From assembly GCA_947169045.1 (NCBI GenBank), contig CAMVOC010000002.1:17762-81761 (forward strand): 64,000 nt of DNA, read 5' to 3'. Shown here piece after piece: positions 14,858 to 42,118 of the stretch. The translations under genes were made by a program, and so were the position numbers. Source of the stretch: an uncultured bacterium (GTDB taxonomy: Bacteria; Patescibacteriota; Gracilibacteria; Absconditabacterales; Absconditicoccaceae). Numbering within the stretch: the first letter of the stretch is position 1; each line of letters begins with the position of its first letter. The notes below the pieces were generated by a model. That model ran no database searches, was not told the DNA's origin, and saw nothing but the letters and a program-made list of their open reading frames with translations.

Positions 14858-16996
14858 ATGGCAACTTCAAGACATCAATTTACTGAGGTTCAGCAAACTT
14901 TTGACCGAGCAGGGAAAAAAATCTGATTCGACCAAGGAAAACTCGCAATGCAAGCGGATGCTTCTATTACCGTTGCGTTTGAAGATACTGCAGTACTATT
15001 TTCTACAGTAGTAGCAAAAGAACCTAAAAGTCTCGACCAAGACTTTCTTCCACTCATGGTAGACATCAGAGAAAGCTTTTCAGCAGCAGGAAGAATTGGA
15101 GGAGCTGCATATCGCAGACGCGAAGGTCGCCCTTCAGATCAGGCAATTCTCAATGCCAGACTTACTGATAGAGCCATCAGACCAATGTTCCCAAAAGGAA
15201 TGATTAATGACGTAGTAATTACCGCAACGCCTATGGCATTAGATCCTAGGTATCCTCTAGGAGTAAGTTGTATCATTGGATCAAGTATTTCCGTAATGGC
15301 TTCCGGATTACCTTTCGACGGGCCAGTAGGAGCCGCTCAAATTGCTTATGTAGACGGAGAATTTATCGTAAATCCAACACATGAACAGTTAGACAAAGCT
15401 GAATTAAACCTTTTGGTAGCTGGTAAAAAAGATTCAATCAATATGATTGAAGACGAAAGCAATGAAGTTCCTCCTGAATTAATGAAAAAAGCTTTTGAGC
15501 TCGGACAAGCAGAAATCAATCGCTGTTGCGAATTCCAATTAGAATATCTCAAGCAACTGAATATCACTCCAAAAGAAGTTGTTTTCAATAAACCTTCTCC
15601 AGAACTTGAAGAAACAATACGTACATATCTGGGAGAAGATAAACTCGAAGCAATGATGGGAAATGCAAAAGTCAGCTTTAATGACTTATATTACGTATAT
15701 GAAAAGGATCTTCTAGAACACTTCAAAGCAGAAATCGAAGACGAAGAAAATCTAGAATTTTCTGTTTCCAAAGTCAAAATGGCATTTTTCAATACGACAA
15801 AATATTTTATCAGAGGAAGAACGCTAAATACCGGAAAAAGAGTAGACAATAGGACACAACTAGACATTCGTCCTCTGTACTGCGAAGCTGGACTCTTCGA
15901 AAGAACACACGGTACTGGTTTATTTTGGAGAGGTGATACCCAAGTACTTTCTACCGTTACCTTAGGAGGACCAACTGAATACCTCATCCTTGACGATATG
16001 GAAAACGACGACATAAAACAAAGATACATTCATCACTACAATTTCCCTCCATTCTCTACAGGAGAAGCAAAAGCTATGAGAGGGACAGGAAGAAGAGAAA
16101 TCTGACACGGAAGATTGGCAGAAAAAGCACTCGAAAGAATGATTCCAGAAAAATCTGTATTCCCTTACACCATCAGAGTAGTTTCAGAATGTCTTAGTTC
16201 TGGAGGTTCTACATCAATGGGATCTGTATGTGGATCTACACTTTCTCTCATGGACGCTGGAGTACCAATCAAAAAACCCGTTGCAGGAATTGCTATGGGA
16301 CTATTCACTGAGCATGATGAAGCAGGAAATATCAGTAAACACCTCGTACTCAACGACCTTATGGGGACTGAGGATTTCATTGGAGATATGGATTTTAAAG
16401 TAGCAGGAACGAGAGATGGAATCACTGCAATCCAACTCGACACGAAACTTAAAGGAATTCCGCTTTCTATCGTATTTGAAACGATTGACCAAGCATTTGG
16501 AGGATACAACGAAATTATGGACGTAATGCTAGAAGCGCTTCCTGCAGCCAGACCTCAAGTAGGAAAATACGCACCAAAAATTGAAGTATTCACCATCAAT
16601 CCTGAGAAAATCAAGGAAGTAATCGGTAAATGATGAGATATCATCAATAAAATCATCGAAGAAAACGACAACATTAAAATAGACTTTGAAGAAGACGGAA
16701 CCTGCTATCTTACGCATCAAAACAAAGAAGTAATTGATAGAGTAAAAGCAATTATTCTAGAAATCGCAACAGATTTAGAAGTCTGACAAGAATTCGAAGG
16801 AGAAATCAGCAGAATAGAAGATTCTTACATGTTTATCCGCCTTCCAAAAGGAAAATCAGGATTCTTACACGTAACCAACCTCTTAAATAGGACTTCTTGA
16901 CCACTAACTAACTCATTCAAAATAGGTCAAAAGCTGAAAGTTATAATCTCTAAGATTGACGCAACAGGAAAAATAGCAGTAAAACAAATCGGATAA
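14858..16996 (+). CDS. pnp: Polyribonucleotide nucleotidyltransferase (PNPase)
   Basis: Track ORFs 14948..16105 and 16115..16633 share one frame. GRREI-[TGA]-HGRLAEKAL (16103-16105) matches the invariant REIGHG. The KH motif VIGK-[TGA][TGA]-D corresponds to GKGG (16631-16636). S1 domain, then TAA at 16994-16996. Confidence 0.96.
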
Positions 16997-36753: not shown

Positions 36754-38085
36754 ATGAAAATACAATTATCCGAACATTTCAATTATAAAAAACTCCTAAC
36801 CTTCACAGCTCCTACAATAATTATGATGCTCTTTAATTCTATCTACTGAGTAGTAGATGGTTTTTTTGTATCAAATTACGTCTGAAAAGATGCATTCACA
36901 GCTGTAAATTTAACCTTTCCTGTGATTATGATCATCGCATCAATTGGGTTTATGGTAGGAAACGGAGGAAGCGCCTTGATTTCAAAAACACTTTGAGAAA
37001 AGAACATAGAATGAGCTAAAAAATATTTCTCAATGCTTGTATATTTCCTAATTATCTGCTGAATAATCGTAAGTATCGCCTGATTCTTCTTGATCGAGCC
37101 TATCATGACGATGTTAAAAGCGTCAGGAGACGTTTTAAGTAACTGTATTATCTATGGAAGAGTGCTATTCTTGTCATTGGTCTTTTTTATGCTTCAGCAC
37201 GTATTTCAGAACTTTTTTATAGTAAACGAGAGGCCTGATTTATGACTAAAAGTGGCAGTCATCATGTGAATCATGAATATTCTCCTAGATTATATTCTGA
37301 TTTATATATTAAAGTTATGAATTTTATGAGCTGCATTAGCCACCGCAGTAGCCCAATTCTTAGGAGCAACGATCCCATTGATCTACTTCATAACGAGTAA
37401 AACATCGAAATTAAAATTTGTAAAAACAAGACTAGAAGTATTACCTATCATAAAAAGCTGTATCAATGGAAGCAGTGAAATGCTGACTACGTTCTCTATG
37501 TCATTACTCAACATTTTATTCAATTACCAACTCATTAAATTTTTCGGCAATGACTGAGTTGTCGCCTATGGAATTATTATGTACGTAGGTTTTATCTTCA
37601 CGGGAATGTATTTAGGATATTCATTCGGAGTAACGCCTATCGTAGGATATAATTATTGAGCAAAAAATGCTAAAGAATTAAAAAATATCTTATTCAAAAG
37701 TAGTCAGATTTTATTTCTAGCTGCGATTATCCTGAGTTGCTCTGCTGAGATTTTTTCAGGATTTCTTGCAAAAATCTTCGTGAGCTATGATGCTAATTTA
37801 TTAGCATTTACAACCAAAGCCATCAGACTCTACGCTTTAGGATATATTGTACAATGGATAAATATCTTCTGATCAGCTTTCTTTACTGGTTTAAACAACT
37901 GAGTAGTATCAGCAACCATTTCATTTTTGAGAATGTTTGTATTCCAAATCATTATGATCTTTGCTATTCCCTATATATTTGGTAGTGAGTGGATTTGGGT
38001 ATCCACAACTTGTGCAGAGGTGCTTTGAGCTTGTGTGACTATCAGTTTCTTGATCGGAATGAGAAAGAAGTATGGGTATGTGTAG
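36754..38085 (+). CDS. MATE-family multidrug/oligosaccharidyl-lipid efflux transporter
   Basis: 444 codons with no TAA/TAG but 15 in-frame TGA (all codons checked). About 12 TM helices. N-terminal APTIIMMLFNSIY-G-VVDGFFV is typical of MATE. Because of the TGA density, the track shows no ORF on this strand at all. Confidence 0.85.
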
Positions 38086-38091
38086 ATTTTT

Positions 38092-38127
38092 GAAATTCTC
38101 CGAATTAAGGGGAACTTCTATTTTTTT
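38092..38127 (+). terminator. Rho-independent terminator after the MATE gene
   Basis: Stem GAAATTCTCC / GGGGAACTTC (8 of 10 paired) followed by T7. Confidence 0.6.
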
Positions 38128-38198
38128 AAAAAAGCAATAAAAGATCTATTTTATAATATCTTACTTGATTTTTTAATAAAGATTTCTATTATGAAATC

Positions 38199-38349
38199 GC
38201 AGATAATCAAGTAAAAAAGTATTTGGTCAAACCAAACGCTATTTTTTAACCAAGAAATTAAGCATCCTATTGATGGTTAATCTTGGTTGAGAGAAACTCG
38301 TTTTTGATCAAATACTTGATTATCTGCACCCATCATTAGGGTGCTTTTT
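38199..38349 (+). ncRNA. Candidate structured RNA / attenuator: long imperfect hairpin plus intrinsic terminator
   Basis: Perfect 15-nt arms GCAGATAATCAAGTA (38199-38213) and TACTTGATTATCTGC (38313-38327). The pairing extends through GTATTTGGTCAAA / TTTGATCAAATAC. Inner hairpin TTAACCAAGA / TCTTGGTTGA. Then GCACCC-ATCATTA-GGGTGC-TTTTT (38326-38349). Confidence 0.45.
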
Positions 38350-38364
38350 ATAACACAAAAAGTC

Positions 38365-38393
38365 CTTAATGCTTTTACATCACAAGCATTAAG
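38365..38393 (+). promoter_or_regulatory. Hairpin ending 1 nt before the methyltransferase start codon
   Basis: Perfect 10-bp stem CTTAATGCTT (38365-38374) / AAGCATTAAG (38384-38393). ATG at 38395. Confidence 0.5.
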
Positions 38394-38394
38394 C

Positions 38395-39258
38395 ATGAAT
38401 TACAAGCCGTTTGTAAAACGGGTCTGATGAAAAAGACAGTTATTAGAACAATTTAAAAACTTATATCCCAAAGATTTCAACGAATATTATGAACCATTCG
38501 TATGAGGGTGAGCGGTATTCTTCGATCTCAGGATCAATTTCTGATCGAAGTTTACAGCTCGCCTTTTTGATTTAAACGAAGAATTAGTAGTTACATATAA
38601 TATTGTGAAAAATGACACAGATAAGCTAATCCACTTATTAAAAATTTTTCAAAATAAACATTCAAAAGATTTTTTTATAGAAATTAGAAGCCGAGATAAA
38701 AATGCAAATTTCAAAAATGAAAAATCAAAAATAGAAAGAGCTGCAAGATTTATTTACCTTAACAGAACCTGCTTTAACTGAATGTACAGAGTAAATTCAA
38801 AATGAGAGTTCAATGTTCCATTTTGAAAATACTCTAATCCGAAAATTTGTGATGAAGAATGACTTTATTTAGCTAAAGAAGCATTACAAAATACTACAAT
38901 AGAAAATGCAGATTTTTCAATAGTAGAGAGACAAGCTAAAAAATGAGATTTTGTATATTTTGATCCTCCTTACGATGTTTTAACTGATACAGCGAATTTT
39001 ACAGATTATAATAAATGATGATTTGGTAGAGATGAGCAGGCAAGATTATTTAATACTTTTGATAAATTGAATAAAAAATGCTGTTATACAATGCTTTCAA
39101 ATCACAACACTCCATTTATTCGTGATTTATATAGGAGTTATAGAAAAGAAATAGTTTTAGCAAAAAGAATGATAAATTCAAATGCAACTAAAAGATGAGC
39201 GATTGAAGAAATCGTAGTTTTAAATTATCAAAATTTAAATGAAAAAGATAAAAAATAA
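38395..39258 (+). CDS. Dam-like (D12 class, alpha group) N6-adenine DNA methyltransferase
   Basis: MNYKPFVK-[CGG]-V-[TGA][TGA]-KRQLL (KWAGGK motif). EPFV-G-G-G-AVF. FIYLNRTCFN-G-MYRVN. FNVPF-G-KY. FDPPY (38962-38973). 13 in-frame TGA (all codons checked). TAA at 39256-39258. Confidence 0.9.
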
Positions 39259-40519
39259 CGATATAGCATGGGAAATATTATTTGATAGATTTAAAATTTT
39301 AGAACAGATAGAAAAAAATTGAATTTTTCAAATTACAGCAGATCAGATAAAAGAAGAAAGAGAACCAAGGTTAATGACAAAATTTGATCATGCTGATGAT
39401 TTACCAAAAATTTTTAAGAAAAACCATATTTCAATATTACCAATAAATCGTTGAACATATGTATTATGAAAGTTTTCAACCCATGAAAATATAAAATATG
39501 ATGAAAATATACCATTTCATAAAATAAATTTAAGACCAGACCTTGAAAGTTTAAATGTAAAAGATTTATTTTCAGAAGCTGTAGCATTAAATTATGCTCT
39601 TGCGACAGGTATGTTGAGAGAGATTGTTGGAGAAGATTGTGAATTAACCGTATCGTGAAAAATGTCCTCATCAAAATTTGAATTTAATGTACAAGATTCA
39701 ATTTATGAAAAAAAATATTTGATTGAGGTTGATAAAGCTCAAGTAGAAATTGATTGATGATATGAATCTACAAATAAATTAATGATTATTGAAGCTAAAA
39801 AATGAAAGTGTGATGATTTTATTATTAGACAATTGTATTATCCATATAGATTACGAAAAGAAAAAATAGATAAGGAAATCGTCCCAGTGTTTATGACAAT
39901 ATCTAATGGAATTTTTAGTTTTTTTATTTTTAAATTTGAAAACAAAAGTGATTATAATTCGATACGTTTAATAAAGCAAGTTAATTATGCAGTTGATTTT
40001 GAACCGATAACAAAAGATGATATAAATTATATAGTTAATAATATAAAGATTATAGATGAGCCAAGAGTTCCTTTTCCACAAGCAAATGATTTTGAAAAAT
40101 GTATCAATATTTTGGAAATATTAAAAAGTTGAGAAAAAACAAAAGATGAAATTAAAGATGAGTATAATTTTGTTATAAGGCAATCTCATTATTATGTTGA
40201 TGCTGATAAATATTTATGATTAGTTCAAGACAATAAGAGAACAGTTTACCTTACAAAATTATGAAAAAAAATAATTTCAAGTCCAAGAAAAGAGAGAAAT
40301 TTATTATTAATAAAACAGATATTTTCTCATAAAATTTTTATGGAAGCTTATAAATATAAAACCAAAAAATGAAAAATTAATAAAAACACCTTAGTAAATA
40401 TGATGAAATCTTGTGATTTATATAATATATGATCTGATGTAACATTTGGTAGAAGAGCATCAACAATTACTTGACGATTAAAATGGATTGATAAAACAAT
40501 AAACGAAAAAGAACTATAA
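39239..40519 (+). CDS. Putative type II restriction endonuclease, PD-(D/E)XK fold (426 aa)
   Basis: ATG 39239 overlaps the methyltransferase 3' end by 20 nt. 13 in-frame TGA and no TAA/TAG (all codons checked). VEID-GG-YESTNKLMIIEAKK fits D-x13-E-x-K. The C-terminal ~130 aa look like a helical/wHTH domain. No family name could be assigned from memory. Confidence 0.6.
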
Positions 40520-40636: not shown

Positions 40637-42118
40637 CTAATACACAATATATCTATCATCCAATCCCTCATAATAACTCTTAATTTTCAGCACGTCTCCC
40701 TTTCTCATCCCTTCCGCTTCTAATAACTCAATAAACCCTTTCTGCTGAAGTTGCTTCCAAAACCACATTTCAGCCTCATCATTTCCCCATGGAGTAATGA
40801 AAACCAGCCTACAAACCTCAGGATTTTGAACTAAATACACATTGAGATAAGTTGAAGTAACCTCATCCAAATAATCATGCTCAATCAGCCAAGGCTTCTC
40901 TTCTTCTGTCACATCTACAATCATATCTTCCTCATCAGCTTCAACAGGCAAAATCGGCTCAACATCCGGCATCTCTTGAGCTGGGAGCCTTTGCAAAAGA
41001 CGAGCTAAAGCTTGTTTCCACGCTTCTATTCCCTGCATTGTACCTGCAGAAGTAACAAAAAGATTATTCCTGATCAAATCTTCAGAAAGCTTAGCATACT
41101 GATGCTCTTCTAAAAAGAGAGAAAATCTGGCTACAAACTGCTTTTTGTACTCCTCCAAGACTTCATCATCATTAACCAAGTCGCACTTATTAAGGACAAA
41201 AAGAATCTTTTTGGAAATGAGTAATTCATCATTTGCATACACATTAAAAGCAATCAGATTTTCTTCCTGTTCAAAAGCAAAGTAATACTCTCCTTCATCA
41301 TCCAAAATCTTCTCCTCAATATACTCTTTAATCTCATCAAAAAGTTCCAAAGTCTCTCAAATCCCCTTATCATACCTAGATAAATCTGCAACCATAGCGA
41401 AAAGCCTCGCTTTCAGGACATGACGCAAAAAATCATTACCAAGACCTTTCCCATCAGAAGCCCCTTTAATCAATCCAGGAATATCTACCATATTAAACCT
41501 AAAATCCCCAACCGTAACAGACCCCAAATTAGGAATCAACGTCGTAAAAGGATAATCCGCAACCTTCGCTTTCGTCGAAGAAACACAGTTAATCAAAGAA
41601 GACTTTCCAACACTAGGATTTCCTATCAGTCCAACGTCTCCCAAGAGTTGAAGCTCTAAAATTAATTCTTTTTTATGACCAGGTTCTCAAAGGAGAAAAA
41701 AATTCGGGAATTGACGAACGGAATCCTTGAAATGAATGTTTCCCTTTCCACCAGAACCTCCTGGAAGTGCAGTCCATTCCTCGCCATCACGAGTAAAATG
41801 ATGTAATACCTTTCCAGTATCAGCATCTTTCACCAGTGTCTCTACTGGAACCGTTAAAATCAGATCCTCAGCATCTGCACCATATTGATCCTTCGTCCTA
41901 CCACTCTCGCCATTATCAGCTTTATAATTCTTTTTATACTTAAATTCTAGCAAAGTATCTTCATCCTTACTTGCCTGAAAAACAATGGAGCCACCACGAC
42001 CTCCATCTCCTCCATTAGGTCATCCACGAGGGATACCAGGAGCTCTGTATCCACTGGCAATTCCATTTCCTCATTTACCAGATTCTACCGTAATTTTAAC
42101 TTCATCATAAAATTGCAT
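40637..42118 (-). CDS. obg: GTPase Obg/CgtA with C-terminal OCT domain
   Basis: Track ORFs 40637..41350, 41357..41644 and 41687..41953, plus the N-terminus, share one frame (gaps checked). Motifs: GK-G-GNG, GGDGGRGGS, GNPSVGKSS, DIPGLI, NKCD. Confidence 0.95.

Follow-up and report, generated by a model that had tools for sequence, protein, structure and literature searches.

A lineage-restricted leader RNA with competing terminator and antiterminator helices, a probable transcription attenuator, upstream of a methyltransferase-nuclease operon in a UGA-recoded bacterium

The window, i.e., the whole stretch of 64,000 nucleotides that was analysed (G000:C2:17762-81761), belongs to an 873-kb genome in 13 contigs. 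Translation with table 11 resulted in fragmented genes, whereas reading TGA as a sense codon gave whole ones, and conserved motifs required TGA to stand for glycine (code 25). With this code, the GKGGNG and PRGGPNGGDGG motifs appeared in Obg and the VGGKRQLL and FVGGGAVF motifs in a DNA methyltransferase. The locus under study starts with a MATE exporter gene (36754-38085, PF01554), the 5' neighbour of the leader described here. Downstream of the leader, on the plus strand, lies the gene of a Dam-family N6-adenine DNA methyltransferase (38395-39258, code 25; PF02086, E = 2.6e-66; TIGR00571, E = 9e-86), predicted to be the first gene under the control of the leader. It is overlapped by 20 nt by a plus-strand gene encoding a 426-aa protein presumed to be a restriction endonuclease (39239-40519), for which Pfam matches revealed three domains of unknown function (DUF6996, DUF6997 and DUF7226). 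The Obg gene (40637-42118) is located 3' of this operon on the opposite strand. The operon has a G+C content of 27% in comparison with about 37% in the surroundings; its methyltransferase gene comes first and no C-protein gene is present.

No homologue of the presumed nuclease was found in 60 related genomes, and a pattern scan of the genome contigs was also empty, so restriction-modification islands could not be compared via the nuclease. In three congeners (L197-L199), an orthologue of the MATE protein with 83-87% identity was identified, followed by different genes. Neither the leader nor restriction-modification genes were present at this syntenic junction in the three genomes; the best match there reached 19 bits, and only a genus-typical promoter and an unrelated terminator were in common. 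Judged by this conservation, the MATE gene is regarded as native and the low-G+C insertion would therefore begin after it. The region from position 38086, 3' of the MATE gene, appears to be a variable hotspot, at which the leader and the operon were probably gained together. The source of the leader is not traceable, as every copy has a rod sequence of its own. Directly after the MATE stop codon, a terminator-like hairpin was observed (38096-38127; TTCTCC-GAATTAA-GGGGAA followed by a T-rich run), which probably ends the MATE transcript ahead of the leader promoter.

The element itself occupies positions 38199-38349, with promoter-like -35 and -10 sequences in front of it. A promoter scan of the plus strand indicated TTGATT (38165-38170) and TATTAT (38187-38192) separated by a 16-nt spacer, and the predicted transcription start is G38199, the first base of a long RNA rod. 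The rod, of about 51 bp in the window, is made of a 5' arm (38199-38259), which includes a U6 run (38242-38247), and a 3' arm (38277-38327), whose final GC provides an alternative outer pair of the terminator stem. An apical box, AAGCAUCCUAUUGAUGG (38260-38276), forms the loop of the rod. The outermost 15-nt arms (38199-38213 and 38313-38327) were 100% complementary, as reported in the initial annotation, and the inner hairpin AACCAAGA/TCTTGGTT described there was present as well. A third copy of TACTTGATT does lie at 38162-38170, but its proposed role as an alternative pairing partner was abandoned, since it corresponds to the -35 region common to other copies of the element.

The rod is followed by an intrinsic terminator (38326-38349, plus strand; GCACCC-AUCAUUA-GGGUGC and U5) with a short stem of 4-6 bp. 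The terminator scan, which detected three terminator-like sites against 0.3 expected, recovered the annotated hairpin at 38326-38344 together with its T-run. The ATG of the methyltransferase gene is located at +46 from the U-tract. On the plus strand, no promoter-like site was detected by the promoter scan between the terminator and the ATG (38350-38394), and inspection of the window by eye revealed no convincing candidate within the rod for a second promoter from which transcripts would lack the 5' arm. This interval contains a perfect 10-bp hairpin (38365-38374/38384-38393, plus strand) ending 1 nt before ATG 38395, as annotated; its region, however, folded only marginally better than chance (z = -1.7, with 11 of 200 shuffles as good). 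The hairpin may dampen methyltransferase translation. As a feature of the whole family it was rejected, being absent from the other copies, including those preceding Dam homologues.

Every feature listed in the initial annotation was thus recovered at its given position. Folding of the leader yielded a minimum free energy (MFE) of -80.8 kcal/mol relative to -41.1 +/- 4.2 kcal/mol for shuffled sequences (z = -9.5, none of 200 shuffles as good). A repeat finder additionally revealed a 17-nt complementarity of 88% between the apical box (38260-38276) and positions 38330-38346, overlooked in the initial annotation. The latter segment comprises the last CC of the terminator 5' arm, the terminator loop, the 3' arm and the first two U residues. 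This complementarity, in which the box would provide the 5' strand and the terminator segment the 3' strand of an antiterminator (plus strand), is the key and most informative feature of the leader.

The search for related elements started with BLAST of the leader against 60 relatives, which gave collinear partial matches in genomes of the same genus. A covariance model (R1) seeded from eight copies and run on the 141 genomes of the family identified 26 full-length copies in 12 genomes, with up to eight copies per genome (8 in G007). The second model (R2), built from these 26 copies, was run on the 401 genomes of the class; its matches were confined to one family and 11 copies were added. Altogether, at least 37 copies supported by covariance models were found in 17 genomes of 7 genera, all from a single taxonomic family of tiny UGA-recoded (SR1-type) bacteria, these counts being lower bounds owing to the strict filters and the few candidates scored per genome. 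A loose signature pattern was also run over all GTDB species, which does not amount to a census, and gave mostly chance matches among those listed; of 80 listed loci from other phyla, R2 accepted two, both from SR1-type MAGs. In a MAFFT alignment of the initial 12 copies, the basal stem was wrongly placed for four sequences, and a model-based alignment was used instead.

In the 873-kb genome of the window, no further copy was detected by BLAST or a 15-mer search, although an nhmmer profile identified one diverged copy on contig C8 (E = 0.029), which the covariance models had missed. The C8 copy (about 16750-16900, minus strand) possesses a rod, the box ACGCAUCUUGGUAUGUGG and the terminator GCACUC...GGGUGCGUUUUUU, and a gene for a signal-peptide protein starts at +27. 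In G007, a single secreted-protein gene is preceded by two copies in tandem (L047, G007:C22, 1501-1634 and 1746-1909, minus strand), and a tmRNA gene is found immediately upstream of them (L047 2123-2509); the copies in L043 and L058 have tRNA genes in their vicinity. Such proximity of some copies to tRNA or tmRNA genes would fit insertion hotspots. Scanning of positions 37500-39000 against Rfam 15 at E <= 10, the check suggested in the initial annotation, gave only chance-level matches far below the gathering scores and no family match in the window, and for 20 other copies only neighbouring tRNA and tmRNA genes passed the gathering threshold. In the literature, no description of such a leader motif was found. 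On these comparisons, the element represents an undescribed, lineage-restricted leader RNA family of about 150 nt.

All copies followed a common plan comprising a -35-like box, a TAnnnT -10 box, the rod, the apical box, the terminator and a co-oriented gene. The -35-like sequence (TTGATT, TTGCAA or TTGAAA), located 34 nt before the rod base, and the TAnnnT -10 box were present in 26 of 26 aligned copies and in the 11 later ones. The rods were 40-57 bp (125-150 nt) long and varied in sequence with the pairing kept, every copy folding individually into a rod. The apical box AAGCAYCYUAG...GG and the terminator CACCC-loop-GGGUGC-U5 were conserved.

A small open reading frame was not part of this plan. 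In the window, a 7-codon mini-ORF (MKSQIIK, plus strand, ATG 38191 to TAA 38212-38214) exists as annotated and overlaps the left arm of the rod, which raised the idea of a leader-peptide attenuator, where a ribosome on the mini-ORF would choose the structure; the antiterminator could in principle be released by a ribosome occupying the 5' arm. Its ATG, however, shares bases with the -10 box, ahead of the predicted start site, and among the 26 copies no conserved small ORF was found, nine having no ATG in the region and the others showing scattered positions and lengths. The mini-ORF was therefore judged spurious. Leader-peptide control is largely refuted by the comparative sequence data and we give it next to no chance.

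In the 26-row model alignment, the basal 12 pairs of the rod were paired in 96-100% of cases, and 11 of these 12 showed double-sided compensatory changes. No shuffle out of 500 was as good, and pairing fell to 30-52% when the partner was displaced by 1-3 columns, although the alignment, having been fitted to the rod base, is biased towards it. The antiterminator helix is absent from the model, so its pairing was not fitted. For this helix (columns 98-107/247-256), 96% pairing and five covarying pairs were observed, matched by none of 500 shuffles. Column 250, which belongs to the 3' arm of the terminator, covaried with box column 104 (CG 14, UG 6, AU 5, none unpaired) and also with column 236 in the terminator 5' arm (CG 18, AU 3, GU 1). 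The terminator was present in all copies. That one column should track two alternative partners is, at the level of the alignment, the signature of competing helices. Part of the covariation in the antiterminator stem comes from one sub-lineage of elements (the UAUGGUG variants) and may therefore reflect few independent events.

Because of indels, column-wise counts underestimate the pairing of the variable part of the box, and per-copy duplex energies were added. In every copy, a box-terminator duplex of 15-19 bp with an energy of -21 to -35 kcal/mol could be formed. Compensated variants were noticed, such as AAACAC with GGGUGU in L054, AAUACCC with GGGUAUU in L066 and ACGCA with UGCGU in the C8 copy. 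Pairing with the terminator loop involves the variable 3' part of the box, which is not the same in different copies of one genome. When boxes were compared with all terminators, the own terminator ranked first for 20 of 26 copies overall and, within genomes, for 8/8, 5/6, 3/3 and 2/2; the mean duplex energy was -24.7 kcal/mol for own pairs vs. -17.2 kcal/mol for foreign ones. Each box matched its own terminator best, which argues that the pairing is intramolecular.

The two strands of the element were not equivalent. The sense rod was more stable than its reverse complement in 26 of 26 copies (-43.5 vs. -34.2 kcal/mol, Wilcoxon p = 8e-6); per rod, it contained 4.3 G·U pairs and the reverse complement 1.4. 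A run of at least five U residues occurred in the 5' arm of 23 of 26 copies, whereas an A-run in the 3' arm was found in two of 26. A DNA palindrome, a MITE or a recombination site would not give such strand asymmetry, and the asymmetric G·U stability in all 26 copies indicates that selection acts on RNA. These data bear on the MITE proposed as an alternative in the initial annotation and, more broadly, on a DNA-level origin, according to which the element would be a MITE-like palindromic repeat, a recombination/inversion site or a cruciform whose RNA folding is incidental. An imperfect palindrome of about 130 nt, multi-copy in some genomes (up to 8, G007), resembles Correia/ERIC-type elements; the neighbouring genes (surface, glycosylation and restriction-modification functions) belong to classes that are often phase-variable, some copies adjoin tRNA or tmRNA genes and the location of the window copy is a variable hotspot. 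However, apart from the G·U and U-run asymmetries, what is common to the copies is structure and not sequence, with compensatory changes in 11 of 12 basal pairs, and the orientation to the gene was fixed in 37 of 37 copies. The genome of the window contains only one close and one diverged copy, the genome-wide BLASTN search for dispersed copies having found none, and no transposase, target-site duplication or flanking direct repeats were noticed during a non-systematic look at the alignments. As to inversion, the promoter lies outside the repeats, and the segment separating the box from the terminator spans 53 bp, which is very short for recombinase-mediated inversion. A DNA-level element is thus considered highly unlikely, and the MITE reading was dropped.

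In all 37 copies, a co-oriented ORF followed the U-tract at a distance of 14-304 nt (median 32). In 18 of 37, the ORF started no more than 30 nt from the U-tract, which leaves no space for a separate promoter, and in 13 of the first 26 copies, the U-tract was only 14-22 nt from the ATG. The genes behind the leader encoded DNA methyltransferases in nine of 37 cases (three Dam, one Eco57I-like, one EcoRI-like, one N6_Mtase and three N6_N4_Mtase), two SNF2 helicases, one NERD protein, five glycosyltransferases, one hexapeptide acyltransferase and nineteen secreted, membrane or orphan proteins. In 25 of 37 copies, the gene behind the leader had no relation to DNA defence. The five glycosyltransferase-linked copies had spacers of 92-304 nt with a promoter-like conserved block, and these five genes may be independent of read-through. 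The block, AAATAAAGGCAGCTTGTAACnAAATACAnATATATC, lies 20-70 nt after the U-tract, before the glycosyltransferase genes, in three genomes of two genera (L046, L010 and L034 in G009, L037 in G133 and L055 in G134), and might act as an additional promoter or as an element particular to these operons.

The initial annotation also proposed that the leader could set the order of methyltransferase and nuclease synthesis in a new host without a C-protein. Such a device would delay or limit the nuclease relative to the methyltransferase and replace a C-protein. The window operon, with its methyltransferase gene in first place and no C-protein gene, would suit such a timing device, as would the nine copies found in front of DNA methyltransferase genes, two of which encode Dam homologues of another genus. 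The leader precedes both genes of the operon, however, and cannot by itself order the methyltransferase before the nuclease. In G133 and G134, Dam homologues with 65% identity to the window enzyme are preceded by the leader in a different operon, which lacks the window nuclease; the same leader before Dam in another operon indicates that it is not tied to one cassette or to restriction-modification. In these loci (L190 2720-4016 and L191 2946-4224, coordinates on the reverse-complemented loci), the Dam gene is followed by a gene of about 180 aa and one of about 250 aa, which looks like a different restriction-modification cassette. With the same leader placed before glycosyltransferases, secreted proteins, helicases and unrelated methyltransferases, the 25 copies before the non-defence genes listed above speak strongly against this proposal, which we find hardly credible. 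From the gene content across copies, the leader is better described as a family-wide device for accessory defence, surface-protein and glycosylation genes.

The element could alternatively be an independent small-RNA gene, the rod RNA of about 150 nt being functional itself, e.g., as a dsRNA-like decoy or a regulator. The match between the box and the terminator loop would then be a tertiary kissing contact or a protection of the 3' end, with any read-through incidental. The unit indeed stands on its own in having both a promoter-like box and a terminator, thermodynamics strongly favours the terminated form and no sensor was found in the copies; moreover, the most variable and best-covarying part of the box is the one pairing with the terminator loop, as in kissing complexes. 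Such a gene would not, however, be expected immediately upstream of a co-oriented gene in 37 of 37 copies, within 30 nt of the start codon in 18 of them, or as two tandem copies before one gene. In addition, the box follows sequence changes of the terminator 3' arm and its pairing extends into the U-tract (L054, L066 and the C8 copy), neither of which a loop-loop kiss needs. A small-RNA gene is accordingly regarded as unlikely.

We therefore favour the reading that positions 38199-38349 probably constitute a cis-acting transcription attenuator in the 5' leader of the methyltransferase-nuclease operon. A G+C-rich hairpin with a U-tract lies in the 5' leader, co-oriented and upstream of the gene, and an alternative helix that uses one terminator arm is supported by covariation. 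An antiterminator-type attenuator had been offered in the initial annotation next to an sRNA gene, and it is this suggestion that the conserved, covarying terminator/antiterminator pair, the promoter of its own and the position directly before a gene bear out; as a whole, the earlier interpretation was partly supported.

The energetics of the two states were compared in silico. The rod with the terminator was 5-22 kcal/mol (mean 12 kcal/mol) more stable than the best antiterminator fold, which suggests termination as the default. Blocking of the 5' arm flipped the MFE structure to the antiterminator in 26 of 26 copies, mostly when 60-90% of the arm was blocked, the window copy requiring 55 of 60 nt. 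The gap between the rod 3' arm and the target of the box was 0-2 nt, and a conserved U-run was present 9-27 nt 5' of the box in most copies.

According to the proposed mechanism, the promoter belonging to the leader (38165-38192) would start transcription at the rod base; the rod would form once its 3' arm had been transcribed, its base abutting the intrinsic terminator. The default product would be a terminated RNA of about 150 nt, with little expression of the operon. The 17-nt box in the apical loop could pair with the terminator loop, the 3' arm and the first U residues to give an antiterminator, whereas an intact rod would hold the box at the far end of a helix of about 50 bp, out of reach of its target. 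From this anatomy and the gap of 0-2 nt, the box is expected to be blocked as long as the rod is intact, the geometry of the rod making it an anti-antiterminator. Were the 5' arm held single-stranded, the box would take the terminator half and RNA polymerase would read into the gene. The putative switch would thus have three parts, the 5' arm as an anti-antiterminator, the box as the antiterminator strand and the terminator as the output. A candidate moment for the decision is a pause at the conserved U-run, giving a factor time to act; NusG-dependent pausing occurs in riboswitch leaders. Because the rod is far more stable than the antiterminator fold, switching would require an active factor, for which an RNA-binding protein, a helicase or a chaperone may be considered. 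Neither a conserved pocket or leader ORF nor a known protein-binding motif was found in the copies.

A wider proposal is made tentatively, as one that we doubt somewhat more than we trust. The leaders might form a new class of attenuators, in which a rod of arbitrary sequence serves as a topological anti-antiterminator and each loop carries a private code, and one trans factor opening or holding the 5' arm could link defence, surface and glycosylation genes into a lineage-wide regulon in SR1-type episymbionts.

Bacteria of the SR1/Gracilibacteria type cannot be cultured alone and, to our knowledge, almost nothing is known about gene regulation in these UGA-recoded, host-dependent organisms. 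One SR1-type family would possess, in this leader, a well-supported structured regulatory RNA of its own, and one type of switch would join DNA defence, surface and glycosylation, the functions likeliest to matter in host contact and under phage pressure. Its design, with the antiterminator strand displayed on the tip of a rod of about 50 bp, would be unusual. The element is short and modular enough for study in vitro or in a laboratory strain, and the covariance model can be used in annotation to mark the starts of accessory transcription units in these genomes. The family-wide view also corrects the notion of the leader as a special restriction-modification device.

The leader shares with classical attenuators (riboswitch platforms, T-box, PyrR- and TRAP-type leaders) the location in a 5' leader directly upstream of the regulated gene, the intrinsic terminator, a mutually exclusive antiterminator using the 3' half of the terminator and a third structure that decides between them. 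In contrast to these systems, it has no Rfam match, conserved ligand pocket, specifier/T-box sequence, leader peptide or known protein-binding repeat. Regarding the T-box in particular, no Rfam T-box match was obtained, and the T-box-like UAGGGUG belongs to the terminator 3' arm, not to an antiterminator bulge. The deciding structure here is a rod of 40-57 bp of non-conserved sequence, which is not paired with the antiterminator strand but would keep that strand away by presenting it in the apical loop.

Correia/CREE elements of Neisseria, ERIC sequences and other MITEs are likewise intergenic imperfect palindromes of about 130-150 nt, multi-copy in some genomes and co-transcribed. Compared with them, the copies of the leader are alike in structure only, possess their own promoter and terminator, keep a fixed orientation and bear G·U evidence for selection on RNA, and no terminal-repeat or target-duplication signature of MITEs was noticed. 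Restriction-modification systems are known to be regulated by C-proteins and by antisense RNAs (EcoRI, Eco29kI). Like a regulator of this kind, the leader is located upstream of a restriction-modification operon and probably limits its expression. The leader is neither a protein nor an antisense RNA, it is not specific to restriction-modification systems and it cannot alone order the methyltransferase before the nuclease. Finally, the ops/RfaH, EAR, LoaP- and UpxY-dependent leaders are similar in being 5' leaders near glycosyltransferase, surface-protein and horizontally acquired genes. Whereas those elements recruit a factor that makes polymerase resist downstream terminators, the leader described here would carry an internal terminator together with a built-in antiterminator.
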